In this document: piece after piece, positions 19,429 through 59,305 of the stretch
Layout of the letters: every line of letters begins with the position of its first letter
How positions within the stretch are numbered: the stretch's first letter is position 1
Source: a bacterium
GTDB taxonomy: Bacteria > 4484-113 > JAFGCY01
Reading direction: 5' to 3'
Assembly: GCA_020440645.1 (NCBI GenBank)
Contig: JAGRNR010000014.1
Coordinates: 1,294-65,293, forward strand
Length of the DNA: 64,000 nucleotides
Made by a program: the position numbers and the translations under genes
The notes under the pieces: generated by a model
Told to the model about the DNA's origin: nothing
Seen by the model: the letters and a program-made list of their open reading frames with translations, nothing else
Database searches by the model: none

Positions 19429-19439
19429 TGCATTCCCGC

Positions 19440-34039: not shown

Positions 34040-34136
34040 GAGCAATGAAGCATGAGTCCTGAGCAATGAGCCAATCCTGACTGAGCTAACTTCGATGCAA
34101 CATGGACTCATTGCTCAATCTTCATTGCTCATTGCT
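34040..34136. repeat. Family B hairpin (GAGCAATGA)n between the transketolase-C gene and the inserted hydrolase gene
   Basis: GAGCAATGAAGCATGAGTCCTGAGCAATGAGCC … GGACTCATTGCTCAATCTTCATTGCTCATTGCT. Confidence 0.7.
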
Positions 34137-34137
34137 T

Positions 34138-37641: not shown

Positions 37642-37782
37642 GGGGTCACCCCAATGGTTTAGATGAGCCGATTATAGCGCTGGGAAACAGGCAGGGAGCT
37701 GAAAGCAGATAGCAGATATCAGAGCTGCCTGCCATCGCCTGCATTGGCACCATACAACTCCCTGTTCGCGAAATTCCCTTAT

Positions 37783-40760: not shown

Positions 40761-40859
40761 GCTGAAAGCAGATAGCAGGGATCAGACTCGGCACTTCGAT
40801 CCTTCTGCGGCAGTTCACCTGTCCGAGTCTGCTCCCTGCTCGCTGCTTTCTGTTCTCTG
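40761..40859. repeat. Imperfect long hairpin built from (A)GCAGA oligomer repeats (family A)
   Basis: Left arm is GCTGAAAGCAGATAGCAGGGATCAGACTCGGC. Right arm is GTCCGAGTCTGCTCCCTGCTCGCTGCTTTCTGTTCTCTG, its reverse complement. The loop is about 30 nt. Confidence 0.7.
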
Positions 40860-42632
40860 TTACGGTGCATACACGGCCCAGACCAGCTTGGTCTGGGTCC
40901 GGACTTCCTCGCCATTGCCGGCTGACAGGCTGAACAGCTGCGCAAGGGCCGGTTGGCCATCAAGCAGCATGAAGCTGGTCAGGCCCGCCGGATAATCCGG
41001 CAGCACGCCATCGATCTGCCAGTCCGCAGGGTCATTGCCAGGCATTGCGCTGCTCCAGTGGCTCAGCACCATTAGCTGGCCATCGAGCGCAGTGGATGCC
41101 TGCGGACTGCCATGCAGGAAGTGCAGCTCAGCCCCGCTGCCCGCCAGGCCCAGCAGCGGGTCCTGCCCCAGCCCGAGCATGTCGTAACTGCTGTATTTCC
41201 AGGACTCGAACAGCTGCGGATCGCCATCGAGGAATTCAGCCGTCCAGAAGCGCAGGCTGCCATCCTGCGCCGGATGCCCGTCCACGCAAGCCAGCAGCGG
41301 ATGCCCGTTCAGTTCAGCGGTGTACATCGCCGAGTCCCGCCCTTCGCCGAGCGTCAGGTGGACCCAGTCGTCCGAGGTACTCGGGAATGACGAGATGCTG
41401 CTGGCAACGCGGAACTCCCGCAGGTCGTTGCCGAGATCAACGCAGTAGCCGAAGGCCGGGCCGCCATTGATGCTGATCGGCGGCGTCGTCCCGGATGTGC
41501 CGGGGATGTCCGGCAGGTCCAGGTAGACGTCGCACACTGCCCAGGACAGGTCATCGGGACTTGATTTGAATGCATACAGCAGGGTGTGGAAGTTGTCACT
41601 GGGAGAGCTGCTGACCTGCATTGTGATTGCCGGCCCGCTGTCCAGCCGGCCCAGCCGGGGGTTGACAAGCCTGGGTGCGCCCATGAAAGCCTCGTTGCTG
41701 AAGGTTTCGTGCGGGTCACCGGCATAGTGCCAGACGAGTGTGGGCACTGCTGGGTTGCCAAAGGGCACGACATTGATGATACCGAAGCCACCGTCGAAGT
41801 CCGCCATGTCCAGGCCCTCCGCACCGAAGAACTGCCCCTCAAGCGAAAGCAGCTCCCAGTCCGGCAGGGCGGCGCCGTTGGCAGTGTTGCTGATTGCCAG
41901 CCGCACGCTTTCAGCCCCGGCGGCATCCCGTGTGGCAAACACGATCGCCGGCCGGCCGCCTATGATGCGCGCCTGCAGCGCCAGTGCGCCGTCAAAGGCG
42001 CTGCCGACATCACTTGCCGATTCCAGCTCCACGAAGCGCCAGCCGCTGGCGGGCCGGGTTGCCAGCTCGAAGTGGTCAAGCACCGGCTGTCCGCCACCCG
42101 TCGCCACGATGAAGGCCAGCAGCACATTCCCTGCGGGAGTTGTATAGCTTGCGCTGTCCGGCCATTCCAGCGCATCCTGCGGATTATCCGCAGCGCGCCA
42201 TTCCCAGCGATTGTCAGCCGGAAGGCCGATGCCAATAAAGCAGGACCCGGCCGCCGGTGTTATGCCCCAGTCCATCACCAGCTCAAGCGGTCCGCTGTCA
42301 GCCAGCGGCACGCGGTACACGGCCCACGCGAAATGCTGCGGAGCTGCTTCGCCGGAAGCTGGCGGCAGGAATCGGATGCCCTCGCCGTCCGTTGCCAGGT
42401 TGCCCTGTGGCAGCTCCATGCCCAGCCGCGCCCCCGCGATGAAGCCCAGGCTGTCGGATGCCACGCGCTCGATCAGCACGCCGGGGGCCGGGAGGTCGGC
42501 CGGTGTACCCGGAGCGCTGGGAAGATCCGTTGGCAGCGATGCTGACTGCGCGCTCACGCGGCTGCAGGAACAGTTCACTGCACAGGCCAGCCAGCCTGCC
42601 AGCAGCAGGCACGAAAGGGAAAACGGACGCAT
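40860..42632 (-). CDS. Hypothetical secreted protein (~590 aa) located between the two dockerin-propeller paralogs
   Basis: ORF 40860..42692. GAGGA RBS sits before ATG at 42632 (MRPFSLSCLLLAGWLACAVNC signal). No motif recognised. Pro/Gly/Ala-rich, predicted beta-rich. Confidence 0.5.
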   Translation of the reverse strand: MRPFSLSCLLLAGWLACAVNCSCSRVSAQSASLPTDLPSAPGTPADLPAPGVLIERVASDSLGFIAGARLGMELPQGNLATDGEGIRFLPPASGEAAPQHFAWAVYRVPLADSGPLELVMDWGITPAAGSCFIGIGLPADNRWEWRAADNPQDALEWPDSASYTTPAGNVLLAFIVATGGGQPVLDHFELATRPASGWRFVELESASDVGSAFDGALALQARIIGGRPAIVFATRDAAGAESVRLAISNTANGAALPDWELLSLEGQFFGAEGLDMADFDGGFGIINVVPFGNPAVPTLVWHYAGDPHETFSNEAFMGAPRLVNPRLGRLDSGPAITMQVSSSPSDNFHTLLYAFKSSPDDLSWAVCDVYLDLPDIPGTSGTTPPISINGGPAFGYCVDLGNDLREFRVASSISSFPSTSDDWVHLTLGEGRDSAMYTAELNGHPLLACVDGHPAQDGSLRFWTAEFLDGDPQLFESWKYSSYDMLGLGQDPLLGLAGSGAELHFLHGSPQASTALDGQLMVLSHWSSAMPGNDPADWQIDGVLPDYPAGLTSFMLLDGQPALAQLFSLSAGNGEEVRTQTKLVWAVYAP

Positions 42633-42743
42633 GTTCGAATCCTCAATCGCAGAGTAAGAAATACTACGTCCTGCAACTCGCAAAGCAGGCATTGTGAAGA
42701 TTGATCATGCGAAATGGCTTTCCGATCACGGACTGCCTGCCCA

Positions 42744-45590
42744 CTACTGGATGTAGATCAGCGTGCCTTCCTTCTGCATCACGAACACCCGGCCATCCGG
42801 GTCAATTGCCGGGCGGCACTGCCAGGCCATGTCATTCGGCCAGCTCCACAGCTCATTGCCGGCACTGTCCAGGCATAAGGTGCGCCCGTTGCCGACCTCA
42901 CCCGCCGTCACCACCAGCGGGTCATTCGCATTGCCGAAGTAGATCCGCCCGGCGCTGTCCACGCAGACCGCCGAGAAGATCGGGGAGGGGTAGCTGAGCG
43001 CCCAGCGCTGCGAGCCGTCGTCATTCAGCGAGTACAGCTTCTTGTCCGTGCAGCCGAACACCACCCCGCCGTCCGCGCCGACCGCCAGTTCGCCGAATCC
43101 GAGCGATCCGGCCAGCGGGAAGCTCCATTTCAGGTTGCCATCCGGCTTCACCACCGTGATGTTACCCGCGTAGTCATCGAACACCGCGCTGCCGTCCGGC
43201 TGCACAGAGACCCCTGAGGTATCCAGGCTGAGCAGCGGGTCGGCCACGGCATAGCTCCACAGCAGGCTGCCCATGTCATCCAGCGCCACCAGACGGTCCC
43301 GCAGGCGGGCGTACAGCAGCGGCGGGTCGCTGCCAGTCCAGACAGCCATGTGCGTCGGGCCGGCGAAGGTGTAGAAGCGCGCCGGCAGGGCTGCCGTGGT
43401 CCACAGTTCCGTACCGTCGCCGCCGATGCAGCTGATGTAGTCGTCGAAGCCGTCACTCCAGCCGTAGTAGAGCAGGCCGTTGCCCATTGCCAGCTGCGTG
43501 CTGAACCGGCCCAGCGGGCGGCGGTACCACAGCAGCGTACCGTTGTCAGTGCAGCACAGCAGCGCCGGCCGGCCCTCATGCGTGCCGATGAAGGCGATGC
43601 GGTTGTCCGGCAGGATCCACGGGGTGGCGCTGTTGCTGGCGAAGGCCGGGTACACCGTGCCGAAGCTGCTGCCAACCGGCAGCACGGACAGCCCGCCGAA
43701 GCCGCTGACAACACGCCCGTCATCCGTGAAGCAGGGACTGCCGCTGGGCAGGCCGCTGCCGCCCGCGCCCCAGCGGAAGCTGCCATCTGGCGCAATGCTG
43801 AGCAGGCTGCCGTTGTAGTAGCCGTAGAAGTTGCCAAGCTGGTCAACTGCGGCCTCGAACAGGTTTCCGATGCCTGCGTATTCCCAGTCAGCCACAGCAG
43901 GCGGGACGAGGGAATGGATCACGGCGTCGCCGGTCTGCCAGGCCAGCCGTCCGTCGGCCCCGAGCGCAGTGCTGCCCTGTACCTGGTTGCCCTCCGCGGA
44001 GAATAGTTCCAGCCCGTTGCCATCGAACAGCCGCACATGGTCCGGGCTGTCGCCGAAGGTGCCGTAGCTGGCCTGGCCGAGGGCATTAACCTTGACCGTG
44101 CCGTTCAGGCTCTCCACCGGTCCTTCCCATGCCACGCCGCCAGCGGAGTTGAGCGCCACCAGCCTGTCCGCGCTCACGAGCAGCCGGCCGGCGCTGTCTG
44201 CGTTGAGGTAGCTGCTCACGTAGTAGTCATTAATGTCAATCGATGCCACGCCGGGGACCGTGTAGCTCCACAGGAAGCTGCCCGCGTCGTCAACCGCACT
44301 GACCCGCACATCGCTCGGCACCGGCAGCTGGTTGAGATAGGGCTGGCCGGTATAGCTCAGCACGCAGAATGCGCCGGGGATCGCGAAGCACAGGCCGAAG
44401 TCCCGCCCCGGCTCACTGTAGTTCCACAGCTCGCTGCCGGAGCTGTCCAGCCTGCGCAGCGTGGCCCCACCGCCTTCCACATACAGCGCGCCACCACCCG
44501 GCACCGGGCGGATGTCCCGCACCCTGGTCCCCAGGTTCAGGCGCCAGTCCTCGCTGCCACCCGTGATCTGCATGATGTCGCCGTTGCGCATGGCGGCCAG
44601 CACGGTGTTGTCAGCCCCCAGCCGGTGGATCGCCGGCCAGTCGCCGGTGTCGATCCCCCAGATGTGGATCAGGTCCGGCGTGAAGCATTCCGCCAGCCCG
44701 TCCATCCCGAGCGTGTAGATGTTGCCATCGCTGCCGACAAGCGGTGCGCTGAAGCGGTCGGTGAATGTCATCCCGCTCTGGTTCGTGAACACAGCCGGGC
44801 CGGCCACCGGGCTGTAGCCGGTGTTGCCGGAATCCGCCCCGCTGCCATTCCAGTTGCCGGGACTGATCGGCCCGCCGCTCGGCACCAGTTCATACACGTT
44901 TCCGGGAATGCCCAGTTCCCGGCTGCTGCCGTCCTGCTGGTAGGGCACGGCGCGGTAGAAGCCGGATGGTGCACCGGGCTGCTCTAGTTCGAAGTACTTC
45001 CGTCCGCCACCGGCCGGCAGCAGCGCCGCGGCAATCGGCAGCTCACTGCGCAGGCTCCAGCCCGCGCTGCCATCGCTGCTGTACTGCAGCTCATAACCGT
45101 CCACCCGGTTGCCGAAGTTGACACCGAGCGGGGTGATGTCCGCCAGCGTGATGAACTCGTTGCCATCGCCGTCCGCCAGCAGCGCCCGGAACCAGTCCGA
45201 ATCACTCGGGGTACGGTTGAGGAAGATCCCGATCGGGGTGATGTCGGAAACATTCACCTCGCCGTTCTGGTCATAGTCCGCCGGGTTGTTGAAGGTCCAG
45301 CGGAAGGTATTGCCATCGAGCGCGAGGTCATGCACCGCTGCATTGGAGGTCTGCGGTGGCGCACTGGCCATCCGTGTGATGCCCTGCTCCGCCAGCACCC
45401 GTGAAAGTTCCTTGAGCAGCTCATCCGCCAGCTGCGCATCGATCCCCGCAGGTGCCACATACTGCGACAGCAGCTGCTCCACCGGCACGGACTGCCCAGC
45501 CTGCGGTTCAGGCGACTGTCCGCGGCCACCGCAGCCGCCCAATAGTGCGGCCAGCAGGGCCGCTCCCCAAAGCTTCACGCTCCACTTCAT
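42744..45590 (-). CDS. Secreted lipoprotein: conserved N-terminal module, dockerin-type repeat pair, PQQ-like beta-propeller repeats (paralog 2)
   Basis: ORF 42744..45614. GAGGTG RBS sits before ATG 45590 (MKWSVKLWGAALLAALLGGCGG lipobox). The N-terminal module LLSQYVAPAGIDAQLADELLKELSRVLAEQGITR is shared with paralog 1. The dockerin pair is DYDQNGEVNVSDITPIGI … DGDGNEFITLADITPLGVNFG. PQQ-like W repeats include SELWNYSEPG, SFLWSYTVPG, GTLLWYRRPL, TELWTTAALP, SLLWSYAVAD, GNLKWSFPLA, SQRWALSYPS and NELWSWPNDM. Confidence 0.75.
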   Translation of the reverse strand: MKWSVKLWGAALLAALLGGCGGRGQSPEPQAGQSVPVEQLLSQYVAPAGIDAQLADELLKELSRVLAEQGITRMASAPPQTSNAAVHDLALDGNTFRWTFNNPADYDQNGEVNVSDITPIGIFLNRTPSDSDWFRALLADGDGNEFITLADITPLGVNFGNRVDGYELQYSSDGSAGWSLRSELPIAAALLPAGGGRKYFELEQPGAPSGFYRAVPYQQDGSSRELGIPGNVYELVPSGGPISPGNWNGSGADSGNTGYSPVAGPAVFTNQSGMTFTDRFSAPLVGSDGNIYTLGMDGLAECFTPDLIHIWGIDTGDWPAIHRLGADNTVLAAMRNGDIMQITGGSEDWRLNLGTRVRDIRPVPGGGALYVEGGGATLRRLDSSGSELWNYSEPGRDFGLCFAIPGAFCVLSYTGQPYLNQLPVPSDVRVSAVDDAGSFLWSYTVPGVASIDINDYYVSSYLNADSAGRLLVSADRLVALNSAGGVAWEGPVESLNGTVKVNALGQASYGTFGDSPDHVRLFDGNGLELFSAEGNQVQGSTALGADGRLAWQTGDAVIHSLVPPAVADWEYAGIGNLFEAAVDQLGNFYGYYNGSLLSIAPDGSFRWGAGGSGLPSGSPCFTDDGRVVSGFGGLSVLPVGSSFGTVYPAFASNSATPWILPDNRIAFIGTHEGRPALLCCTDNGTLLWYRRPLGRFSTQLAMGNGLLYYGWSDGFDDYISCIGGDGTELWTTAALPARFYTFAGPTHMAVWTGSDPPLLYARLRDRLVALDDMGSLLWSYAVADPLLSLDTSGVSVQPDGSAVFDDYAGNITVVKPDGNLKWSFPLAGSLGFGELAVGADGGVVFGCTDKKLYSLNDDGSQRWALSYPSPIFSAVCVDSAGRIYFGNANDPLVVTAGEVGNGRTLCLDSAGNELWSWPNDMAWQCRPAIDPDGRVFVMQKEGTLIYIQ

Positions 45591-45695
45591 CTGCACACCT
45601 CGTTGTGGCTGCACATGGGCTCACCGCAGCCGGGAAACCTTCATATATATTAAGGTGAGTCGCCCCAGTGCGGCGGGATCGGGAGGAAATGGAAG

Positions 45696-46718
45696 ATGGC
45701 GACGATCAGCAGACTCGGATTGCTGCCCTGGCTCAGGCACCTGCGCGGTGAAAGCAGCCAGTACATCCTCGTGTTCAGCGGCGGGCGGCTGACGAGAAGC
45801 GGCCCCGGCCTGGCATTCTGGTTCAACCCGCTGTCAACAGCAGTGGCCCAGGTGCCGCGCGAGGACATTGAGACCACCTTCATGCTGCGCGAGCGCAGCT
45901 CGGACTTCCAGGAGATCAGCGTGCAGGTGACCATCACCTACCGCGTGCTGGACCATGCGATGGCCGCCGAGCGCCTCAACTTCTCCGTTTCGCTCGTGAA
46001 CGGCGCCTGGCTGGAGCAGCCGCTGGACCGGCTGGCCAGCTTCTGGATGCAGCGTTCGCTGAAGAGCGCGCGCGACTACATCTCCTCCAATACGGTGCAG
46101 CAGAGCGTGACCGCCGGACCGGGGGCGATAGCCACTGCGATCACCAGCGCGCTGAACGAGGACCCGGAGCTGGAGGCGATGGGGCTTGGGCTGGTCGGCG
46201 TGCAGGTCAACAGCGTGTTGCCATCCGCCGACGTGGAGAAGGCGCTGCAGACCCCGACCCGTGAGGCGATCCAGCAGAAGGCGGATGAGGCGATGTTCGA
46301 GCGCCGCGCGATCGCCGTCGAGAAGGAACGCGCCATCAAGCAGAATGAGCTGGACACCGAGATCGAGCTCGAGAAGAAGAATGAATCCCTGATCCGCAAG
46401 AAGGGTGAGAACCGCCGTCTGGAGATCGAGGCCGAGAACGAGGCCGGCCGCCTGACCGCCGAGGGCGACGCCCAGCAGGTGCGCATCCGCGCCGAGGGCC
46501 AGGCCGAGAGCAAGCGCATCACCGCCCAGGCCGAGAACGAGGCCGAGGCCGCCCGTGTCGCGCTCTACCGCGATGCCCCGGCCAGTGTGGCCACCGGCAT
46601 GGCGCTGATGCAGTTCGCCTCCAAGGTGCGCGACATCCAGCACCTGAACGTCACCCCGGACCTGCTCGGCAGCAACCTGCGCCAGTTCCTCACAGACCAG
46701 GGCGACACGGCGGAGTAG
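45696..46718 (+). CDS. SPFH/band-7 (flotillin/stomatin-like) domain protein
   Basis: 340 aa. Strong RBS GGGAGGAAATGGAAG-ATG. SPFH core is followed by a long Ala/Glu-rich coiled coil (EKERAIKQNELDTEIELEKKNESLIRKKGENRRLEIEAENEAGRLTAEGDAQQVRIRAEGQAESKRITAQAENEAEAARV). Confidence 0.8.
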   Translation: MATISRLGLLPWLRHLRGESSQYILVFSGGRLTRSGPGLAFWFNPLSTAVAQVPREDIETTFMLRERSSDFQEISVQVTITYRVLDHAMAAERLNFSVSLVNGAWLEQPLDRLASFWMQRSLKSARDYISSNTVQQSVTAGPGAIATAITSALNEDPELEAMGLGLVGVQVNSVLPSADVEKALQTPTREAIQQKADEAMFERRAIAVEKERAIKQNELDTEIELEKKNESLIRKKGENRRLEIEAENEAGRLTAEGDAQQVRIRAEGQAESKRITAQAENEAEAARVALYRDAPASVATGMALMQFASKVRDIQHLNVTPDLLGSNLRQFLTDQGDTAE

Positions 46719-46721
46719 CGC

Positions 46722-47666: not shown

Positions 47667-47835
47667 TCCAGTCAGGCTTCCCGCTGAAATCAGCCCCGGC
47701 TGGCCTCCCGGCGGGCGATCTGAGCCCCAGTTTTCCGTTTTACGTATTCCGCAGCATCGGTTGGATTTAAGTTAAATGCCGGGTACAACCAACGGTTGCA
47801 GCTGCCTCCAGGCCCTGCGATCGAGGAGCCAAATA

Positions 47836-50800
47836 ATGCGTTTCAATCGGACCAAGATCTACCTTCTGATGTTGTTGCTGATGCCGGCTGTGCTGGCCTC
47901 CTGTGGCGCAGGTGGCGGTAGCGCGGTTTCATCCCTTGATGCAGCTTCCCAGCCGTCGGTTCCACTGCAGGGTAATGCCCCGCTGGCAGATGGCCTGCCA
48001 GCCCTGGACCAGCTGCCCGAGCCATCGCGCAGTGCGATGCTCAGCGGCCCGGGATACTTCCCGGTGCCGATCCTCGAGCAGGGCGTGATGCTGCAGCGCA
48101 GTGGTTCGGTCGTCTCCGGCCCGCAGGGCATCGAGCTGGATGGCAGCGCAGGTGAGGCCTGGGTGCTGTTCGGGGTCTATGGCTTCGACGGTGACAGCCA
48201 GCCGAACGCCGTAATGGCGGAGGCCACCGATGTGCAGGGCAGTTTCCATATCGGCGTCACGCACTACGCCAGCGGACGCTGGGAGTGGAGCGCGCCCTTC
48301 ACCGGCGATGAGGAGCATGAGTACGAGCACGTGGCCCAGTACACCGTGGCCGACCAGTATGTCAGCGAGCGTGGCTTCCACTACATCGCCGTGCTGGCGC
48401 CGGAGGGCTCGAGCCTGCTGCTCAGCGGCCTGCAGCTCGGGGTGGACGGCGGTGACAACGCACCCGTCGCGCCGGACTACTTCGAGATCAGCAATGGTGA
48501 CGCCGGCTTCCACTTCTGGTGGTACCCTAGCCCGGACCATGACGACCCGGACTTCGCCGGCTACACCATGCAGCGCGCCCTGTGGCCCGGCACCGACTTC
48601 CAGGACCTCGGCCCGCTCTCACACGAGACCTTCTACCATGACGCTGCAGCCGACCCGGCCCTGCTCTACCGCTACCGTGTACGCGTGGCGGATGTAAGTG
48701 GCAACTCCAGCTGGGGTTATTCCAACACCCCGGTCAGCGTCAGTGGCGACAACTACCCGGTGCCGGCGCTGGAGATGCCGGCCGGGCCGCTCTACGGCGG
48801 GCAGATGGTGACATTCGACCTCAGCGGCAGCTATGACCCCGACGGCGAACCGCTCACGGAATACACGGTCCAGTTTGACAACACGAACGGCATGGGCGGC
48901 GTCGGCCCGCTCACCAGCACCGACCCGCAGATCAGCGTGCTGCTGCAGCCCGGCTGCTACGTGGTGCAGGCCGCGGCCAAGTCCACCGTCTACTGCCAGC
49001 CGATCGTTGACACGCTGAAGATCTACCCGGCCTGGCAGCCTGAGCCGCAGCTGGTGGCCGAGCCCGGCAGCGGGCAGTGGCGCATGCAGTCCAGCCGCAG
49101 CATCTACTGGCCACAGGGCGACGCAATCGTCACATTCTTCAATGACTACCTCGGCCCCGGCCTCGGCGCGCTCGTGCAGCATGCCGACGGCAGCCGGGAG
49201 GTCCTGCAGCTGCCCTACTACCTGTACGACATCGACTGGATCTCCGAGCCGGTGGTCTGGCAGGGCCAGCCCTATGTCGGCGTCGTGTCTGACAACGTGA
49301 TGCTACTGGCGACCATCGGGGCGGACGGCCTGCAGTGGATTGAAGGCGGCCTCGGCTACACCGGCTTTGTGAACATCGATCTCGTGGTGGACGGCGAGGA
49401 CCAGCTGCGGGTCTGCACCCTGAATGAATACAACCCCGGGGACTTCGAGGTGCTCGCGATCAATGCCGGCAACCCGCTCGACATCTACACCCTCGAGTTC
49501 ATGTCCAATTCCGACGGTCCGTTTGACGTGGAGTGGAACCCGGAATACGGCGGCTTCGAGCTGATTTACACCACGGTCGGCAGCATCCACTGGAACCGCA
49601 CCGATGAGGAGGGTGGCCTGGTTGTCGACGACTTCGTCGGCGCGGGCATCTTCGATTCACTGGACATGGAACTCCATGCGGACGGCAGCCCCGGCGTGAT
49701 GGGCCGCTCCGGTGGGTCCTTCGTCTACTTCTCCTTTGACGAGGGCACCGCCAGCTGGTCAGCACCCGAAGTGATCGAGCCGATTGGCCTGAACGGCAAG
49801 TCCGGCGACCTGCTGTTCGATGGCAACGACATGGCAGCCTTCTTCGGCCTGGCGGTGGGCCAGTCATCGCTATACCGCCGCAACGGCGGCAGCTGGGACC
49901 CGCAGACCGTCAACTGGGCGCTGCTTTCCGGCCAGCACTGCGCCATCGCCCAGTGGCCCGACGGCCGCGTGAACATCATCGACGGCACGGTGGGCGGCGC
50001 GATCTTCATCTCCGACTTCAATGAGGATGGCAGCCACCCCGCCCCGATTGAGGTTCCCTCCGTTTCCTGGGACGGCATTGACTTGAATGCCGTCGCCGGG
50101 GCTGACGGCATCCACGCCGTCTGGCGTGGTGACAACGGTGCGATCCATTACATCGCCGACGACGACGGCACCAATTGGAACGCCTCCACCGGCTTCGTCA
50201 GCAGCGATGCACTTGAGCTGATGGCGGACGAGAACGGCAAGGTGTTCGTCGGCAACACCCACGGTGCGACCGCCGACCTGTTCAGCTGGTTCGGCGGCGC
50301 CTGGCTGATCGAGGGCAGCTCCAACCGCTGGGGCAGCAGCCTGCCTTACCTCGCCGCCCAGCGTGATGCCCCCGGCGGACAGTTCATCGTGCAGGATGAC
50401 CTGCCAGTGCCGCCAGCGCTCAGGCACATGCATGACGACGGCGGCGGCTTCCTCGTGTTTGACAGCTACGATTTCGACACGATCCGGATTGACGAGGGGG
50501 TGTCCCTCTTCACGGGCGCCGGGCTGATCAGCTTCGTGCGCGGCGATGAGATCCTCGGTTCCAGTGGGCTGGTCGGCTTCATCTCCGCTGACGACCACAG
50601 CTATGCCCACCAGATACACGACTACCTTTACACCAGCAGCGTTGACCTGACGCGCGGCCGCCGGATGGATGCCTGCAACTACCTGACAGGCCCGTCAAAC
50701 TCGCACAGCGCATTCTGGGTCAGCGGACTCGAGGGCGGCGCTCCCGGCGTGACGCGCTTCCAGGGCAAGGCCTACAACGGCAAGTACAACGTCGACAGCA

Positions 50801-51087
50801 ACACTGCCCTGGCGGACCCGGTCGGCATCGGGGCCGGGCAGATGCAGCACACGCTGTCCGCGGCCCAGGCCTGGGGCCTGACTGCCGTGGCGATCTCCGA
50901 CCAGTTCGGCGGCGAGCAGGGCTGGCTGGAATGGAGCAACTTCGGTGAGTTCGAAAGCCTCGCACTGCCACCGATCGACATGGAATACACGATGATGCAC
51001 GAACTGGTTGTCGGTGCGGATGGCCGCTGGCACATCCTCTACCGTGACAAGCGCGACGGGGCGATCTATGAGATCAGCACCACATGA
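47836..51087 (+). CDS. Giant secreted lipoprotein, tandem paralog 1 (N-terminal domain, FN3-like, PKD-like, then BNR/Asp-box beta-propeller-like C-terminal region)
   Basis: ORF 47776..51087. GAGGAG RBS sits before ATG 47836 (MRFNRTKIYLLMLLLMPAVLASC lipobox). FN3-like motif is YRYRVRVADVSGNSS. PKD motif is FDLSGSYDPDGEPLTEY. Asp-box motifs are RRNGGSWD and ADDDGTNW. The conserved C-terminus is WHILYRDKRDGAIYEISTT. Confidence 0.75.
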   Translation: MRFNRTKIYLLMLLLMPAVLASCGAGGGSAVSSLDAASQPSVPLQGNAPLADGLPALDQLPEPSRSAMLSGPGYFPVPILEQGVMLQRSGSVVSGPQGIELDGSAGEAWVLFGVYGFDGDSQPNAVMAEATDVQGSFHIGVTHYASGRWEWSAPFTGDEEHEYEHVAQYTVADQYVSERGFHYIAVLAPEGSSLLLSGLQLGVDGGDNAPVAPDYFEISNGDAGFHFWWYPSPDHDDPDFAGYTMQRALWPGTDFQDLGPLSHETFYHDAAADPALLYRYRVRVADVSGNSSWGYSNTPVSVSGDNYPVPALEMPAGPLYGGQMVTFDLSGSYDPDGEPLTEYTVQFDNTNGMGGVGPLTSTDPQISVLLQPGCYVVQAAAKSTVYCQPIVDTLKIYPAWQPEPQLVAEPGSGQWRMQSSRSIYWPQGDAIVTFFNDYLGPGLGALVQHADGSREVLQLPYYLYDIDWISEPVVWQGQPYVGVVSDNVMLLATIGADGLQWIEGGLGYTGFVNIDLVVDGEDQLRVCTLNEYNPGDFEVLAINAGNPLDIYTLEFMSNSDGPFDVEWNPEYGGFELIYTTVGSIHWNRTDEEGGLVVDDFVGAGIFDSLDMELHADGSPGVMGRSGGSFVYFSFDEGTASWSAPEVIEPIGLNGKSGDLLFDGNDMAAFFGLAVGQSSLYRRNGGSWDPQTVNWALLSGQHCAIAQWPDGRVNIIDGTVGGAIFISDFNEDGSHPAPIEVPSVSWDGIDLNAVAGADGIHAVWRGDNGAIHYIADDDGTNWNASTGFVSSDALELMADENGKVFVGNTHGATADLFSWFGGAWLIEGSSNRWGSSLPYLAAQRDAPGGQFIVQDDLPVPPALRHMHDDGGGFLVFDSYDFDTIRIDEGVSLFTGAGLISFVRGDEILGSSGLVGFISADDHSYAHQIHDYLYTSSVDLTRGRRMDACNYLTGPSNSHSAFWVSGLEGGAPGVTRFQGKAYNGKYNVDSNTALADPVGIGAGQMQHTLSAAQAWGLTAVAISDQFGGEQGWLEWSNFGEFESLALPPIDMEYTMMHELVVGADGRWHILYRDKRDGAIYEISTT

Positions 51088-51136
51088 TGTAACCTTCGCG
51101 TTTCACATCCCGGCATGCCGGGTATCAGGACAGGTT

Positions 51137-51165
51137 GCCCCTCCGGGGCTCCTGCATTTTCTGTC
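51137..51165 (+). terminator. Putative rho-independent terminator after lipoprotein paralog 1
   Basis: GCCCCTCCGGGGC stem-loop followed by TCCTGCATTTTCTG. It is preceded by a second perfect palindrome, CCCGGCATGCCGGG (51108-51121). Confidence 0.5.
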
Positions 51166-51177
51166 CAGGAGTATTGA

Positions 51178-54100
51178 GTTGAATACCTATAGATACAGGT
51201 GGGCGCTGGGCGCCCTTGCATTGTTCACATGCATGGCCATGCTTGGATCCTGCGGTTCCGGCGGCGGCATGCAGCTTGAGCCTGTTTCCAGCACGGATGC
51301 AGCCGGGCAGGAGTCCTTCAACGGACTGCTGCCTGCCATTGATGAACTTCCCGAGGCTACGCATGAAGTCAGCATGCTCGGCCCCGGCTGGTACCCGGTG
51401 GACGTCACCGAGCAGGGTGTGCTGCGCCAGCGCAGTGCATCCGGCAGCGTCATGGTGCAGCCTGACGGCGTGCACATCACGGCGGATTCAGCCCCGGCCT
51501 GGGCGCTGTTCGCGGTCTACGGCTTCGACCACGACGCCTTCCCGAGCTCGGTGCGCGTCGAGACCGATGCCGATCCCGCCAGCTACTACGTCGGTGAGAC
51601 CAGCTACCAGGATGGCCGCTGGAACTTCGCCGGACCGTTCGGTGGCAACGCTGAATTCGAGTATCCCGAGGCCGGGACGGAGTACGACCCCGATAACCAC
51701 GTCAATCCGATGGGCACGCACTATGTTGCCATCGTGGCCCAGCCCGGCGTTGAGATGGTGCTCAGCGGGATCGAGCTCGGCGTGCACGGCGGCGAGAATG
51801 CCCCGATGGCCAACCTGCTGCTCGGGATTGACTCCGATTCCGGTGACCAGGGGATCGTGATCTCATGGCCGGATGCAGCAGGGTCCGACATTCCGGACTA
51901 CCTCGGGGCCTTCGTGGAACGCTCATTGTGGCCCTCCTTTGACTTCGAGACCATCGCTGGACCAGTGCTTGACAACCATTTCCTCGATTCGACGGTGGAG
52001 CTTGGCACAAAGTACCGCTACCGCGTCCGCTACGAGGACGTCAGTGGCAATGCAGGCCTGAGCCAGTCCATCTCGAGCGTTGCCACTGCTGGCGACCTGC
52101 CCCCCATCGCCGTGCTGGACATCCCGCATGGCCCGCTGTTCGGCCGCCAGACCGTCAACTTTGACATGTCCGGCTCCTTCGACCCGGATGGCGACGCGAT
52201 CACCGAATACCGCGTCGAGTTCGGCATCGGCAGCTTCAACACAGGCATCCAGCCCGTGTTCGGCCCGGCCAGCGACTTTGACATCGAGCTGCAGCCCGGC
52301 ACTTACTGGATCATGGCTGAGGTCACGGCGAACGGCAAGACCGGAGGCACGCTTGCCAAGCTGAAGGTCTACCCGGCCTGGCAGCAGACCGCGAGCATCG
52401 TCTCCCCCGGCCAGAAGGGCGAATGGCAGATGCAGCGCAACCGCGCGATCCACTTCCCGCCGGCCAACGAGATGCTGGTGTTCCACGATGCCCCGCTGCT
52501 GCCCGGTGTCGGCCTGCACATCACCGCGGCCGATGGCAGTATGCGCACGCTTGGCATCCCCTACATGCGCACCGGCGTGCAGTGGATCTCCGAACCGGTG
52601 ATCCACGATGGCAGGGCATGGATCGCCGTGCGTGATGACAACACCTTCTTCCTCGCTTCCTACGACGGCAACGAGTTCCGCTGGGCCGACAACTTCACGA
52701 TCGGTGTCGGTGGCGGCTATGAGCAGTGCGACCTGGTGGTGGACGGCGATGGCCGGCTGCGCATGTGCTACCTCTGGGAATTCAACCCCGGCGACTGGCG
52801 CATCGATGCCGTGGACGTGTTCGACTACGACGTCATCCCGGTCAGCCCGACAGCCAACACCAGCGGCTGGTTCGACGTGGAGTGGAACCCGGTGCACGGC
52901 ACATTCGACGTGATCTACCCGATGGTCGGCATCAGCATGTTCCAGCGCCTCGACCCGATCGGCGGCCCGGTTGACAACGAGATGGTGATCGCCATCGCGC
53001 CGAGCTTCGCCGACCTGGAGGTCGACCCGGCCAGCGGCCAGGCCTCCGTGCTTGAGCGCATCGGAACCCTGCAGCTGTACATCCCCTACGATGACGGCGC
53101 TGGCATGTTCGGCCCGCCGGAGATCATTGACAACGCAGCTGACAACACCGAGTTCGCTGACCTGGCCTTCATTGATTCCGACCCGACCGTGTTCTTCGGG
53201 CTCAACGCGCTGCCCTCGAACCTGTACCGCCGCAATGGCGGCAGCTGGGACCCCATCAAGGCCACCTGGGCACCCTCTTCCGGCCAGCACTGCGCCATCG
53301 CCGCCTGGCCTGACGAGACCGTGCAGATCGTGGACGGTACCAACAACGGCGGGATCTTCCTCGCCTCCGTCGATGCCTCTGACAACACCGAGGAGCTGGA
53401 CTACATCGAGGGCAGTGTCTACCAGGGCAACAGCCTGCACGCCGTGGCCGGTAGTGACGGGCTGCATGCCTACTGGATCATCGGCAACGAAGGCGTGCAC
53501 GTGATCGGCAGTGCCGACGGCAAGAACTGGGTGCCTGCGGCTGACAACGGCCCGTCATTCGGTGCCGACCTGATGGCCGACCGGGACGGCGAGGTGTTCC
53601 TCTCCACTTCCTGGGGGGCCAACCACGAACTGCACAGCTGGACCGGCGCGGCCTGGTTGTTCGAGAGCAGCTCGGACACCTTCAACGCATCCCAGGCCTG
53701 GTTCTGTGCGCAGGACAATGTGTTCGGCGGGCAGTGGTGGGCGCATGACCACAGTGTCGCCCCGGCCCGCATCCGCCGCATGCATGATGACGACGGCATG
53801 GCCCTGCTGCCGGACTCCTACGAGTTCGACATCACGAACGTGTTCGAGGGCACCGGGCTGCTGACACTGGGTGGCTACACCTCCTTCGTGCTGACCGGCA
53901 ACGGCTCCGAGCAGGACGGCAGCGTCGGCTTCCTTGACAACGACACCGCGAGCTACAGTGAGATCATCAAGGGCTTCACCGTCAGTGATGAAATCAGCTG
54001 GACCAATGGCCGCCAGCTGGACGCCTGCAACTACATCGGCGATCCCGGCCTGCCGAAGGAGGCCTACTGGGCCAGCTTCAAGTCATTCGACCTCGGGGCC

Positions 54101-54439
54101 ACCCGGATTGAGGGCCTCAACTTCGTTGGCGACATGTCCATTGAGCATGTCGAGGGCTTCGACAGCCTGCTGGACACCCAGACCTTCTCCGGCGCCCTGA
54201 CCACCGTCAGCGCGGCCCAGGCCAGGAGCAACACCGCCGTGGCCGTGCTGGACCAGTTCTTCGGTGACTGGCACCGCATGGAGTGGAGCAACTTCGGTGA
54301 CTTCGAGGAGATCCCCTCGCCGGGCATCGACTGGTCCATGACCAGCATGCACGAGCTGGTGGTCGGCGAGGACGGCCAGTGGCACCTGCTGTACCGCGAC
54401 ATGCGCGACGGCTACATCTACGTGATCAGCACTACATAG
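51178..54439 (+). CDS. Giant secreted lipoprotein, tandem paralog 2 (same architecture)
   Basis: ORF 51008..54439. AGGAG sits 8 nt before TTG 51178 (…NTYRYRWALGALALFTCMAMLGSC lipobox). YRYRVRYEDVSGNAG, FDMSGSFDPDGDAITEY, RRNGGSWD and SADGKNW are present. The C-terminus is WHLLYRDMRDGYIYVISTT. Confidence 0.7.
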
Positions 54440-54545
54440 GTAGCAGAAAGCAGAGAGCAGGGAGCAGACTCGACGTGCGAACAGCGTGGTCTGCTTTCTG
54501 CTTTCTGCTCTCTGCTTTCTGCTCTCTGCCCCCTGCTCCCAGCAA
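54440..54545. repeat. Family A hairpin (AGCAGAAAGCAGAGAGCAGGGAGCAGACTCG … GTCTGCTTTCTGCTTTCTGCTCTCTGC) directly after the paralog-2 stop
   Basis: Arms of tandem GCAGA/TCTGC pentamer-hexamers, complementary in several registers. Begins 1 nt after TAG 54437-54439. Confidence 0.7.
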
Positions 54546-54633
54546 CCTGCAACCTGATCCCTGTATACTCAACACAGGGAACTGCAGTAGATGCAGCGGC
54601 TGGCAGGAGGCCATGCCCCCGTCGGAGTTCTGC

Positions 54634-57600
54634 ATGAGACTTGTGGGATCCGGCACCGCATGGTCGGTCGCCGTACTGATCGTCCTGGCAGCCTGCTGCC
54701 TGCTTCCGTCCTGCTCTGGTCGGCAGCCGGACATGTCCGCGCCAGCCCAGCAAGTGGACCTGACCCCCGGCCCGGAGCCGGCGGCTCCTGTGGCGGATGG
54801 CCTGCCTCAGCTGGCCTCCCTGCCGGATGCACAGCATTCCGCAAGCTACCTCGGCCAGGGTTGGTTCCCCGTCCCGATTCTCGAGCAGGGAGTGCTCATT
54901 GCAGCCAGTCCCGGCGTAAGCTCTGCAGCGCAGGGTGTTGTGATCAATGCTGCGGGCGGCCAGTCCGCCTGGGCAGTGTTCGGCATTTACGGCTTTGATG
55001 GCGACAGCTTTCCCGCTGCCCTGGCCTGCGAGCTGACAACCCTCAGTGGCGACTACGCACTGGCTGCCAGCCGCTACCTGGACGGCCGCTGGGAGGTGGC
55101 CGGACCATTCACGGATGACGCGCAGTTCGAATATGCTTATGCAGGTGGGGGCGCAGATCCGCGCAATCTCCTCTCCGGCCGCGGCTGCCACTACGTGGCG
55201 GTGATTGCCAGTCCCGGCAGCTCGCTTGAGCTCAGTGGCCTGCAGCTTGCGGTGGACGGCGGGCAGGACGGGCCCGCAGCTGTTTCGTTCCCGCAGGGCA
55301 TCCGCAGCAGCCTTGGGGTACAGCTGGTCTGGCAGGCATCAGCGGACGGCCGCAACCCGGACTTCGAGGGTTACATCGTGGAGCGGGCCGACTGGCCCGG
55401 CACCACCTTCGCCGCCGTGAGCGAACCCCTGCATGGACTGGACTGGCTCGACACGGATCTGCAGGAAGACCGGCATTACCGCTACCGCATCCGCAGCTTT
55501 GATGTGGCGGGAAACTCCTCCAGCGGCCCATACTCAACCGTCCTGGGTAGTTTTGACAACCTTCCGCCGGTCTGCGTCATGGACATCCCCACCGGCCCGT
55601 TGTACGGCGCACAGCAGGTGACGATTGACCTTTCCCGCTCCTTCGACCGCGACAATGACAGCTTCACCGACTACACCCTGCTCTTTGGCAACGACCCGTT
55701 TGACATCGGAGTCGGGCCGCTCTCGAACACTGATGGCGCTTTCAGCGTACTGCTGCAGCCCGGCTGCTACCATGTCATCGGAGTTGTCACCGCCGGAGCC
55801 AACATCGGCACCTGTGTCTCTGAGCTGAAGATCTATCCGCAGTGGGAGAATGAGGCCCAGCTGATCGCATCTGCTCCGCCGGTTGCCCCGGTGCTGGGAT
55901 CGCCTTCCGGCACATACCTGCCGGCAATCAACGGCGTTGCCACTTTCGGGCTGGAGCCGGTACTGCCCGGCCTTGGCCTGCTGCTGCAGCCCGCGGACAG
56001 CCCGGCCCGGCTGCTGCGCATCGTGCCACCGCGCTTCGGCATCGACGGCATCTCAGAGGCCACTCAATGGAACGGCCTGGCTATCTGTGCCGCCGTTGAC
56101 GGATCGAACGCCTACATCGCCTATACGGACGGGGAAAACTTCGATTGGCTGGAAGTCGGGCGCGGCTTTGTGAAGGGCAGCCGCCTCGACCTGGTGGTGC
56201 CTGCCTCAAGCCCACCTTACCTGTGCTTCATCGAGGAGAATTTCATGCCTTCCTCGCGCCTGCTGGCATACGCGAGCATCGGCAGCAGCACTCCCCTCGA
56301 GCTGGTGCCCGTGTTTGAAGGCGACTATCCCTTCGACGTGGAATGGAATGCAGCGCAACAGGGCTTTGACATCCTCTATGGCCAGCCCGGCGCGACAAGG
56401 CTGCGGCGCTGCGATGCCAGTGGCAACATGCTGCTGGAACGCACGATCGCCTTCACCACACCGCAGAAGCTGGAGCTTGAGATTGATCCGGCAACGGGGA
56501 ATCCCGTCATCCTCTGGCGCAGCAGCGGTGGCACGGCGATCTACACGCAGTATGACAACGATTCCGACAGCTTCCTGCCGGGAGAGCCGGTTGACCCGCT
56601 GCTGCTGGCCTCTCTGGGCGAGCAACTGGCGCTTGCCGGTGGCCTGCCGGTTGTGTTCATGGGCAGTCCGGGCCAGCCCGCCGGGCTGTACCACCGCACG
56701 GGCGGCAGCTGGCAGCGGATGGCGGCGGACTGGTCCCCGCTCTCGGGCACGGACGGTTCACTGGCTGCCCGGCCGGACGGAACGCTGCGCGTGCTGGACA
56801 GTGATGACGCGATGACCAGCTGGCTCGTTGACATCATGCCCGGTGCAACGCAGTCGGTGGTTGACAGCCTGCCCCCGACGGGCCGGCAGGGGATGGACCT
56901 GAATGCGGTGGCTGGCAGCGACGGGCTGCATGCCATCTGGTGTGCGGATGGCGAGAGCCGCCACTACCGCAATCCGGAGGATGGCAGTGGCTGGCAACCC
57001 GTCAACCTGCTTGATGCCTGCCAGTCGCAGGACCTGATGGCGGACCAAAGCGGATCCGTGCTGCTATCCACCCGAGTTGACAACGCATCCTTCCTGCTGA
57101 AGTGGAACGGGGCGGACTGGGACGCGATCTGGTTCACGCTCAGCAACCTTGACCAGTCCAATCCCTGGATGTGCATGCAGTCCAATTCACCCGCCCCGCA
57201 GTGGCTCTACCTTGAGGATGACCTGCCGGATGACCGGTTGCACTACGTGACGGACTATGGCACCGGCCTGCAGGAATCCACAAGCTCAATCTATCCGGAT
57301 CAGGTGATGGAAGGGGCCGGTGTATACAGCGGCAACTTCATGGTGTCAATCGTGGCGCTTGGCAACGGCAGCTACAGGGACGGACGCATCGGCGTGCTCA
57401 ACAAGCCCCACAACTCGGTGGATGTGCTGCTCAATGCTTCCGCCAACATTCCGGATGAGGCCAGCGGACTGCAGGGCCGCCAGCTTGATGCCTGCATGGG
57501 CAAGCACAGCAGCGGCAATGTGCAGACGGTGTTCTACAGTTCAGTTTCCGCATTCCAGCAGGATGCCACCAGGCTGTGCGGCTTCAGCTACAACGGGGAC

Positions 57601-57903
57601 TTCAGCCTGCAGGAGCAGGCGCAGTTCCGCTTCGCCTTCGGCAACCGAGACTGGCAACGCCTGCGCACAGTCAGTGCCGTCCAGGCCTGGGGCCTGACCT
57701 GCGTCGGGCTGATCGACCAGGCCTTCGCAGATGGAGCGAAGCTGGAGTGGGACGACTTCGGCGACTGGGAGCAGCTGTCGCTGCCCCCGGTAGACTTCGC
57801 CCGCAGCAACATGCATGAGCTGGTGGTTGGCAACGACGGCCGCTGGCACATGCTGTTCCACGACCTGCAGGACGGCGGGATCTACGTGATCAGCACTACG
57901 TAG
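54634..57903 (+). CDS. Giant secreted lipoprotein, tandem paralog 3 (same architecture)
   Basis: ORF 54379..57903. The likely start is ATG 54634 (MRLVGSGTAWSVAVLIVLAACCLLPSCSG lipobox), because the upstream 85 codons overlap the hairpin repeat 54440-54545. YRYRIRSFDVAGNSS, IDLSRSFDRDNDSFTDY, HRTGGSWQ and PEDGSGW are present. The C-terminus is WHMLFHDLQDGGIYVISTT. Confidence 0.7.
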   Translation: MRLVGSGTAWSVAVLIVLAACCLLPSCSGRQPDMSAPAQQVDLTPGPEPAAPVADGLPQLASLPDAQHSASYLGQGWFPVPILEQGVLIAASPGVSSAAQGVVINAAGGQSAWAVFGIYGFDGDSFPAALACELTTLSGDYALAASRYLDGRWEVAGPFTDDAQFEYAYAGGGADPRNLLSGRGCHYVAVIASPGSSLELSGLQLAVDGGQDGPAAVSFPQGIRSSLGVQLVWQASADGRNPDFEGYIVERADWPGTTFAAVSEPLHGLDWLDTDLQEDRHYRYRIRSFDVAGNSSSGPYSTVLGSFDNLPPVCVMDIPTGPLYGAQQVTIDLSRSFDRDNDSFTDYTLLFGNDPFDIGVGPLSNTDGAFSVLLQPGCYHVIGVVTAGANIGTCVSELKIYPQWENEAQLIASAPPVAPVLGSPSGTYLPAINGVATFGLEPVLPGLGLLLQPADSPARLLRIVPPRFGIDGISEATQWNGLAICAAVDGSNAYIAYTDGENFDWLEVGRGFVKGSRLDLVVPASSPPYLCFIEENFMPSSRLLAYASIGSSTPLELVPVFEGDYPFDVEWNAAQQGFDILYGQPGATRLRRCDASGNMLLERTIAFTTPQKLELEIDPATGNPVILWRSSGGTAIYTQYDNDSDSFLPGEPVDPLLLASLGEQLALAGGLPVVFMGSPGQPAGLYHRTGGSWQRMAADWSPLSGTDGSLAARPDGTLRVLDSDDAMTSWLVDIMPGATQSVVDSLPPTGRQGMDLNAVAGSDGLHAIWCADGESRHYRNPEDGSGWQPVNLLDACQSQDLMADQSGSVLLSTRVDNASFLLKWNGADWDAIWFTLSNLDQSNPWMCMQSNSPAPQWLYLEDDLPDDRLHYVTDYGTGLQESTSSIYPDQVMEGAGVYSGNFMVSIVALGNGSYRDGRIGVLNKPHNSVDVLLNASANIPDEASGLQGRQLDACMGKHSSGNVQTVFYSSVSAFQQDATRLCGFSYNGDFSLQEQAQFRFAFGNRDWQRLRTVSAVQAWGLTCVGLIDQAFADGAKLEWDDFGDWEQLSLPPVDFARSNMHELVVGNDGRWHMLFHDLQDGGIYVISTT

Positions 57904-58005
57904 TTGGCAGAGATCAGAAAGCAGGGGGCAGACTCGACGTATGAACATGTGAGTCTGCTCCCTGCTTTCTGCTATCTGCTCTCTGCTTTCCGCTTTCTGC
58001 TCTCC
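57904..58005. repeat. Family A hairpin directly after the paralog-3 stop
   Basis: GCAGAGATCAGAAAGCAGGGGGCAGACTCGACG … GAGTCTGCTCCCTGCTTTCTGCTATCTGCTCTCTGCTTTCCGCTTTCTGCTCTCC. Confidence 0.7.
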
Positions 58006-59151: not shown

Positions 59152-59305
59152 TGGTCAGTGGTCAGTTGTCAGTGGTCAGGAGCTGTTGGCAGAATGAGAA
59201 ACAGAATCAGCAGAATACAGGTGTCGAATCCTCGGACCTCCTCCTGTTTGTCATTCTGATTCTGCAATCTGCTTCTTCCTGACCACAGACCACTGACTAC
59301 TGATT
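59151..59305. repeat. Composite palindromic element between convergent genes
   Basis: Order is (GTGGTCA)x4 heptamers, then a CAGAAT-repeat hairpin (GCAGAATGAGAAACAGAATCAGCAGAATACAGG … CCTGTTTGTCATTCTGATTCTGCAATCTGC), then inverted (TGACCAC)-like heptamers. The whole 155 nt is self-complementary. Confidence 0.65.

Follow-up and report, generated by a model that had tools for sequence, protein, structure and literature searches.

Heptamer-repeat hairpins behind stop codons in a 64-kb stretch of an uncultured bacterial genome: candidate elements of transcript 3' ends

Long inverted repeats lie directly behind the stop codons of lipoprotein genes in a stretch of 64,000 nucleotides (the window) of contig JAGRNR010000014.1, from an uncultured bacterium, and the locus raises the question of what these repeats are and why they occur where they do. 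An earlier note on this DNA had described three of them, designated here c1, c2, and c3 (family A), as hairpins built from GCAGA oligomers that occur specifically downstream of genes for giant secreted proteins. It had proposed that they were terminators or mRNA stability elements shared by this gene class or, alternatively, a family resembling repetitive extragenic palindromes (REPs) or miniature inverted-repeat transposable elements (MITEs). Our analysis of the window, which has a GC content of 63%, and of related genomes points to heptamer hairpins that are similar to the short tandemly repeated repetitive (STRR) sequences of cyanobacteria and that act as terminators without a U-tract or as exonuclease barriers, a reading whose chances we judge from the sequences to be about even. 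A role in termination or mRNA stability, as originally proposed, is still the most economical reading.

Long imperfect inverted repeats were present at exactly the coordinates reported for c1, c2, and c3 (Table 1), and each of the three began within 0 to 3 nt past a stop codon. Complementarity between the arms was 89% for c1 (40764-40791/40823-40850), 93% for c2 (54442-54468/54497-54523), and 90% for c3 (57907-57935/57951-57979). The description of the arms as GCAGA oligomers was wrong; the unit is a tandem heptamer, GCAGNNN or NNNCTGC. One arm reads, in succession, AGCAGAA, AGCAGAG, AGCAGGG, and AGCAGAC, and the opposite arm consists of their complements. In the c2 hairpin, the 5' arm is made up of 4 GCAGRRR units and the 3' arm of ~8 YYYCTGC units, so that pairing can take place in several registers, with two found beside the main one. 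Loops are 15 to 31 nt in length; c3 is homologous to c2, loop included, and the loops of c1 and of c2/c3 are unrelated. Tandem Repeats Finder detected a period of 7 at 54442-54529 and at 57954-58001, and enrichment among short periods in the window was observed for period 7 only. The pattern GCAGN3GCAGN3GCAG was found 12 times in the window versus 0.11 expected, and a 24-nt core (≤3 mismatches) was found 5 times versus 0 expected, with every occurrence inside c1 to c3. Folding of the RNA of the strand of the upstream gene, a check that the earlier note had called for, gave stable hairpins with stems of 25 to 27 bp and energies of -49.1, -60.4, and -56.8 kcal/mol for c1, c2, and c3, respectively (z, -5.7, -5.1, and -6.8), and 0 of 200 shuffles folded equally well. 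Rfam covariance models did not match family A, and three tRNAs alone passed the gathering thresholds in the window.

Heptamer arrays were not confined to family A. Period-7 tracts occupied 212 of 5532 intergenic nucleotides of the window versus 61 of 58468 genic nucleotides, and at least 6 types of heptamer unit were present. Hairpins with the same architecture and other units (Table 1) had fold z-scores of -3.4 to -5.9.

Comparisons were made with loci from contigs carrying homologues of P3, the lipoprotein paralog that lies between c2 and c3 (8 clusters). The genome closest to the window is CP060262.1, a complete 4.1-Mb metagenome-assembled genome labelled Planctomycetales bacterium HK-STAS-UBP7_A-1, whose syntenic locus (L130, also L009) encodes an aldo-keto reductase 97% identical to that of the window. 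In the literature, UBP7 denotes small marine genomes and not UBP7_A (PMC11382960). Three further syntenic relatives, L132, L136, and L137, have aldo-keto reductases that are 90%, 91%, and 88% identical to it, respectively. L133 is a second cluster of the window organism with seven giant-lipoprotein paralogs, L135 is its counterpart in CP060262, and L001 and L002 are strain contigs from two other samples.

In all genomes, all copies of family A started 0 to 5 nt past a stop codon and left the remainder of the spacer free; the spacer between c1 and the start of the next gene (bp1, starting at 40668) is ~92 nt. Hexamers resembling a -10 box were found beyond the hairpins (TAGAAT at 40718-40723 on the minus strand and TATACT at 54564-54569). 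The promoter and 5' untranslated region (5' UTR) stretch at 54553-54633 was conserved with the P3 orthologue of L132, in which the hairpin part was replaced by other stem-loops. Behind other giant-lipoprotein genes, different hairpins were present, and some hairpin filled the slot in every case, also where family A was absent, so that the slot appears to be kept rather than the sequence. Under the favored reading, the hairpin would be transcribed as the final part of the upstream mRNA, and the RNA would fold into a 25- to 27-bp hairpin and so determine or protect the 3' end of the transcript, acting as a terminator without a U-tract, as a barrier to 3' exonucleases, or as both. The upstream gene would thereby be insulated from the promoter of the next gene, located 10 to 65 nt beyond the hairpin, and family A would be one type among several interchangeable hairpins filling the slot between stop codon and next promoter. 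For c2 and c3, the sense strand folded better than the antisense strand by 3 to 8 kcal/mol, through G-U pairs. Stem-loops are a general feature of transcript 3' ends in bacteria, and their shapes differ from clade to clade (PMC13613805).

The loop-proximal core GGGAGCAGACTCG was conserved, and distal units were gained and lost, a pattern consistent with replication slippage. Between the window and CP060262, the number of units differed in the arm of c1 (4 to 5 versus 6) and in the 3' arm of c2/c3 (~8 versus 3). For the GTGGTCA array at 59150, the unit counts were 4 (window), 5 (L001), and about 14 (L132), and a drift of the unit from GTGGTCA to GTGGGCA, GTAGGCA, and GTTGGCA was observed along this array (59150-59179; L001 11060-11100; L132 14523-14620). 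Such differences in unit number between close relatives favor the main rival explanation, namely, that the hairpins are neutral by-products: slippage-expanded heptameric simple sequence repeats (SSRs) whose arms owe their complementarity to template switching (quasi-palindrome correction) and which lie near stop codons because promoters and 5' UTRs exclude hairpins from the remaining spacer. We regard this explanation as possible but, on the whole, doubtful. It would account for the many unrelated unit types within one 64-kb window and for the replacement of whole spacers between genomes with 97% identical aldo-keto reductases. The transketolase/glyoxalase spacer (36117-36552 versus L130 440-589) was non-homologous between the window, where it is 436 nt long and contains AACCTGC arrays and small hairpins, and CP060262, where it is 150 nt long and contains a CAGACTN heptamer hairpin. 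Furthermore, heptamers are the most over-represented long SSRs in bacteria, which has been attributed to slippage (PMC4679880, PMC4692102).

Neutral turnover is less easily reconciled with the conservation of core and loop above synonymous-site identity. The identity of c1 with the hairpin of L136 was 85%, versus 62 to 77% at synonymous sites of neighboring genes, and that of c2 with the hairpin of L137 was 73 to 83%, versus 52 to 66%, with the hairpin figures being somewhat inflated by the low complexity of the repeats. The c1 set contained a compensated change, T-A to C-G, in L136. Neighboring proteins dropped to 45 to 71% identity while the hairpins stayed at orthologous positions. In CP060262 and L136, the latter with a protein identity of 71%, c1 directly adjoined the stop of the beta-propeller gene bp2; in the window, a 610-amino-acid (610-aa) lipoprotein gene intervenes after bp2, and c1 was unmoved by this change of upstream gene, which also speaks against neutrality. 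The same can be said of the non-heptamer hairpins that occupy the slot where family A is absent.

A polarity of the arms provided a further point. A metagenome scan for (GCAGNNN)x5 arrays returned at least 120 loci (L010-L129) with GC contents from 0.36 to 0.77. Among the matches listed, the GCAG array preceded a CTGC partner array within 150 nt in 16 of 16 paired loci, and the reversed order, with CTGC first, was found in 0 loci (binomial probability, about 1.5e-5). Because the arm order of an inverted repeat is strand-independent, the GCAG-first order is a real polarity. The hairpins of the window shared it, with purine fractions of 0.66 to 0.75 on the 5' side; the CAGACNN family, at about 0.5, was the exception. 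In those window families that had a bias, the purine-rich arm was 5' and the U/C-rich arm was 3', on either strand. This strict 16:0 polarity has no obvious explanation in slippage, is not predicted by slippage alone, and could be due to a constraint at the RNA level or to a mechanistic one; for a 3'-end element that is read from either side, a purine-rich 5' arm and a U/C-rich 3' arm would be a requirement.

Several results weighed against a role at transcript 3' ends. Two heptamer arrays, 16995-17105 and 62828-62858, occupy divergent (5') spacers, as the neutral explanation would also allow, so the heptamer class is not strictly a 3'-end feature. Among the metagenome matches listed, for which open reading frame (ORF) calling was crude, array flanks were gene 3' ends in 29 cases and gene 5' ends in 29, with 9 of the 29 3' flanks lying within 6 nt of a stop codon; GCAG heptamer arrays, which are common in metagenomes whatever the GC content, showed no excess at 3' ends, a further point for neutrality. 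Comparison of sense and antisense energies over 9 hairpins gave a mixed picture (5 sense, 3 neutral, and 1 opposite). Covariation was thin, with 2 compensated pairs among the three c1 sequences, whereas the c2 set had none and showed only G-C to G-U changes; the sequences were few, and the slippery registers left the alignments ambiguous. Abutment on a stop codon is equally expected of neutral insertion that merely avoids the downstream promoter. No U-tract was present at c1 to c3, and a scan for canonical promoters and terminators detected nothing at the stems; its sole flag was a 5-bp mini-hairpin in the c2 loop, and the region scored below shuffles in hits. Finally, stems of 25 to 27 bp and loops of 15 to 31 nt are far from those of classical terminators, and such hairpins could be RNase III substrates instead.

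A canonical intrinsic terminator consists of a GC-rich stem of 5 to 14 bp and a loop of 3 to 8 nt followed by a U-tract, and U-tract-less "I-shaped" terminator hairpins have been proposed for high-GC bacteria. Family A resembles intrinsic terminators in forming a stable hairpin right after the stop and before the next promoter, with a 3' arm and tail that are rich in pyrimidine or U. It differs in its stem and loop sizes, in its construction from repeats, and in the missing U-tract, so that c1 to c3 do not fit a canonical intrinsic terminator in structure.

Among the closest known systems were the STRR heptamers of filamentous cyanobacteria, which were reportedly described by Mazel et al. in 1990 and by Jackman and Mulligan in 1995. 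These also consist of tandem, intergenic 7-bp units with several unit types per genome and form inverted, hairpin-forming arrays between co-directional genes in which the sequence is variable and the structure is retained, and a role in transcript stability or termination has been suggested for them. The 7-bp STRR hairpins between hupS and hupL have no proven function, and stabilization of the transcript has been proposed for them (PMC2670836). The heptamer hairpins of the window share with STRRs the 7-nt period, the intergenic confinement, the inverted stem-loop arrays, and a locus that is kept while units vary. They are not STRRs in the strict sense, as that name refers to a cyanobacterial host and to STRR units: STRR hosts are heterocystous or filamentous cyanobacteria, whereas the window host is an uncultured 63% GC bacterium, and STRR units are CCCCAGT, TTGGTCA, and CAACAGT, whereas those of the window are GCAGRRR, CAGACNN, GAGCAAT, and GTGGTCA. 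A further difference from STRRs is the core and loop of family A, which are conserved and not made of repeats. A CTGACCA/TGGTCAG sequence at 59279 was noted to resemble the STRR unit TTGGTCA.

Other heptameric repeats have been reported. The SSRs GGGAATC and GGGGAYT of Xanthomonas and Nostoc have conserved loci and variable lengths and include some inverted pairs (PMC4692102), and the TAACTGA repeats of Beggiatoaceae and cyanobacteria are intergenic heptamers (PMC4679880). Both share with family A a strong intergenic excess of period 7, conserved loci of variable length and sequence, and an explanation by slippage, and some of the known loci form inverted pairs where genes converge. They are mostly single direct arrays, whereas family A is paired into long hairpins abutting stop codons; moreover, the Xanthomonas and Nostoc SSRs are G-quadruplex candidates, and the TAACTGA repeats lie just upstream of start codons. 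Heptamer-repeat hairpins are already known from cyanobacteria and Xanthomonas, and what is new is an example in an uncultured, non-cyanobacterial lineage.

Two half-copies of family A had also been claimed. That at 37697-37730 was real: it has 19 nt identical to the c1 arm, consists of three GCAGATA-type units inside a short stem (GGCAGGGAGCT/AGCTGCCTGCC), and was conserved in CP060262 (L130 1733-1764); the fold of the window copy was weak (z, -2.1). The other, at 36196-36215, was merely a 13-nt resemblance; it did not match the 24-nt core at ≤4 mismatches, the spacer that holds it was wholly non-homologous to the corresponding spacer of CP060262, and, on this evidence, it is probably not a family A member.

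Table 1. Family A hairpins, partial copies, adjoining lipoprotein genes, and other heptamer arrays of the window
Feature	Positions	Strand	Remarks
c1	40761..40859	(-)	Adjoins stop codon (40860-40862) of 610-aa lipoprotein gene
c2	54440..54545	(+)	Directly 3' of TAG stop of paralog P2
c3	57904..58005	(+)	Directly 3' of TAG stop of paralog P3
Partial family A copy	37691..37735	(-)	48 nt past stop of bp1 (37783..40668)
Marginal resemblance to c1 arm	36196..36215	unassigned	13 nt, AGCAGGGATCAGA
610-aa lipoprotein gene	40860..42692	(-)	Upstream of c1; missing from CP060262
Paralog P2, 1086-aa lipoprotein	51179..54439	(+)	Upstream of c2; no Pfam domain
Paralog P3, 1089-aa lipoprotein	54634..57903	(+)	Between c2 and c3; no Pfam domain
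Hairpin, outer GTGGTCA/TGACCAC and inner CAGAATN	59150..59308	unassigned	-65/-66 kcal/mol, z -5.3/-5.9; ends touch stop codons of convergent aldo-keto reductase and methyltransferase genes
GAGCAAT/ATTGCTC hairpin	25825..25940	(-)	Downstream of 26059..28335(-); -57.3 kcal/mol, z -5.5
GAGCAAT-type hairpin	34025..34137	(-)	Adjoins stop of 34138..35130(-); z -3.9
CAGACNN array and hairpin	25462..25572	unassigned	z -3.4; between stop of 24736..25461(+) and 3' end of tRNA-Val(-)
CAGACNN hairpin	16995..17105	unassigned	Divergent spacer, between the 5' ends of tRNA-Val(-) and gene 17205(+); -59.4 kcal/mol, z -4.9
GAGCAAT array	62828-62858		Divergent spacer
AACCTGC array	36496-36530		
CTGCCTT and CCACTGA arrays	63761-63916		

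Association of family A with a class of genes was examined by means of orthologues. Those of a third paralog, P1, were present in the window, L130, L132, L136, and L137; those of P2 in the window, L130 (98%), and L137 (45%); those of P3 in the window and L132 (65%); and those of bp2 in the window, L130 (95%), and L136 (71%). Family A followed P2 in the window (c2), CP060262, and L137, with the core GGGAGCAGACTCGAC being identical in L137 despite the 45% protein identity of P2. It followed P3 in the window (c3) only; the P3 orthologue of L132 was followed by unrelated 7-bp stem-loops (GAGGTCAGGCGTAAGCCTGAC...). It never followed P1, after which small unrelated hairpins were found instead, also in L132 and L136. 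In the second giant-lipoprotein cluster, 0 of 14 spacers (7 from the window organism and 7 from CP060262) contained family A or a heptamer array of any kind, and ordinary hairpins were present. These results contradicted the proposed specificity for giant secreted-protein genes, given a paralog without a copy and 14 spacers without one, and also a sharing of the element by secreted-protein genes as a class, since orthologues of P3 and P1 carry unrelated stem-loops. Furthermore, c1 follows a different gene, bp2, in CP060262 and L136, and hairpins of other heptamer units follow aldo-keto reductase, methyltransferase, and tRNA genes in the window. An apparent association with a gene class would be as expected from local inheritance and duplication of units of gene and hairpin.

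The second part of the original proposal, a REP/REPIN- or MITE-like mobile family dispersed in the genome, is highly improbable in our judgment. REPs are present in hundreds of dispersed copies of conserved sequence together with a cognate RAYT transposase. Family A is like REP/BIME (REPIN) elements in consisting of multiple related, extragenic, imperfect palindromes after stops, with a possible function as an exonuclease barrier inside operons or at their ends, and the absence of a copy after P1 could look as though insertion had occurred after P2 and P3. It differs from REPs in its 2 to 3 local copies and heptamer-array arms. A collection of 185,579 species genomes, in which the window's own species was not represented, was scanned with an 18-base exact core. 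Of the 7 matches obtained, one was a true copy, c1 of CP060262, which was thus the only exact core match in that 4.1-Mb genome; the remaining six had no GCAG heptamer arms and no inverted repeat around them and were compatible with chance (~17 by our own estimate, based on the pattern and the size of the collection). In a fuzzy search for the core that tolerated ≤4 mismatches and covered ~210 kb from five related genomes, orthologous positions alone were detected, and 2 to 3 copies per genome were found, all in one ~20-kb neighborhood. No terminal inverted repeats or target duplications were visible at the flanks of c1 to c3, and a MITE was ruled out on the grounds of these flanks, the local copies, and the unrelated loops of c1 and c2/c3. 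Because the fuzzy search matched orthologous positions only, family A is, as far as the compared sequences tell, a small, local, vertically inherited set and neither a signature of a gene class nor a mobile family.

The lipoproteins themselves were also examined. Lipoprotein signal peptides with a lipobox L-x-x-C were detected in the 610-aa protein, P2, P3, and both neighboring beta-propeller proteins (bp1 and bp2). The ~1,080-aa lipoproteins (window 47836-57903; L133 1-23186) matched no Pfam family, gave 8 homologue clusters in a search of 5.8 billion proteins and occur as 2 to 3 tandem paralogs at this locus and as a second tandem cluster of 7 to 8 paralogs elsewhere in the same genome. P2 orthologues were 45% identical where the aldo-keto reductase was 88% identical. 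By these comparisons, the ~1,080-aa lipoproteins are a lineage-restricted, fast-evolving family of surface proteins. Low third-position GC was observed in 37783-40668 (0.60) and 34138-35130 (0.59), with neighbors at about 0.8 to 0.9, which may be a sign that the two genes were acquired recently or that their codon bias is relaxed.

Gain and loss of these genes raised a further possibility, that the hairpins are DNA-level recombination junctions, serving as hotspots or homology patches for lipoprotein cassettes. The direct repeats c2 and c3 lie on either side of P3 (54440-58005), and in CP060262, where P3 is absent, there is only one hairpin (L130 16605-16687), which mixes c2-like and c3-like parts: the 5' arm was c2-like (31/33 to c2 versus 27/33 to c3), and the loop and start of the 3' arm were c3-like (21/25 to c3 versus 16/25 to c2). 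Within the limits of these small counts, the apparently chimeric hairpin fits a loss of P3 through recombination between c2 and c3. However, a c3-like loop is likewise present in the outgroup L137, and simple divergence fits equally well. The 610-aa gene with a 51-nt spacer (40860-42743 versus L130 4707-4908) is present in the window and L131 and absent from CP060262; one breakpoint of this indel coincides with the distal edge of the heptamer arm of c1, as a recombination junction would predict, and the other is at the stop of bp2. Against such a role, the second paralog cluster varies between 7 and 8 genes without such hairpins, and no recombinase or integrase was seen nearby in a Pfam scan of ten ORFs (35169-59972). 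We consider recombination junctions to be an improbable explanation.

Integron attC sites, whose ends carry R''/R' core sites (RYYYAAC ... GTTRRRY) and which are linked to an IntI integrase, were set aside, as direct reading showed no GTTRRRY core at the ends of c1 to c3 and there was no integrase among the ten ORFs scanned; the lack of such cores at the hairpin ends also counts against recombination junctions. CRISPR was set aside, as there were no spacers.

Polymorphic unit number next to genes for surface lipoproteins could also suggest phase-variable regulators, in which the number of units tunes the downstream gene (P3, the aldo-keto reductase, or bp1) through the spacing of its promoter or the structure of its 5' UTR. 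Only ~12 nt separate the hairpin of CP060262 from the start of the aldo-keto reductase gene, and it must therefore overlap any promoter there. In the window, however, the arrays are followed by, and do not include, the conserved -10-like boxes and 5' UTRs, and imperfect mixed units in an inverted arrangement are unlike contingency SSRs. Furthermore, c2 and c3 were identical in the strain contigs L001 and L002, with no length variation there. Phase variation is therefore very unlikely to be the explanation.

A second intergenic family was observed in the window (14992-15140 and 23985-24015), L132 (9589-9820 and 13265-13320), and L136 (13247-13300). It consists of GC-rich stem-loops of 7 to 8 bp with loops of 4 to 5 nt (GCAA, GTAA, or CGTC) and GGAGG ahead, often in tandem and starting 3 nt past a stop; L132 9586-9735 had a folding energy of -85.5 kcal/mol (z, -9.8). 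In relatives, this family fills slots that are held by family A in the window.

A sequence cccTAGAATagRccc was found directly before the ATG of the aldo-keto reductase gene and another gene in relatives (L130 16673-16690; L132 13446-13463 and 16975-16992; L136 14147-14164), with ggcTAAAATgtagag as its counterpart at 58075-58092 of the window. A -10-like box located 6 nt from the start codon suggests leaderless transcripts. A small repeat, (a)ccaacaaggccctgtagctc-N5-gagctaca, was present in the window at 24030-24075 and in L130 at 21440-21490 and 21590-21640. In CP060262, it was joined to a GAGCAAT heptamer hairpin. Two tandem copies of this composite lay in a divergent spacer, ahead of the gene orthologous to that which starts at 62869 in the window; the window retains only the 3' arm (62828-62858). 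Tandem repeats with periods of 15, 30, and 60 were detected at 19051-19937 within ORFs 19440..20519(-) and 18940..19428(-) and are pentapeptide-repeat-like.

Overall, the practical outcome for the original claim was negative, in that family A is neither a secreted-protein signature nor a mobile family. The parts most worth following up are the arm-polarity rule and the hairpin-flanked cassette, and arm polarity is open to examination in any organism with STRR-like repeats. A more far-reaching view, which we consider unlikely, is that polar hairpins of inverted heptamer arrays are a widespread, unrecognized class of 3'-end elements tuned by slippage and that they additionally provide homology patches for the lipoprotein cassettes of this lineage. 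The favored reading of family A as transcript 3'-end hairpins would be of relevance for annotation and for understanding the boundaries of transcription units in high-GC lineages that are uncultured and have no classical terminators with a U-tract. If the hairpins do mark 3' ends, they would constitute an operon boundary that can be read from the sequence and whose length evolves quickly through slippage.

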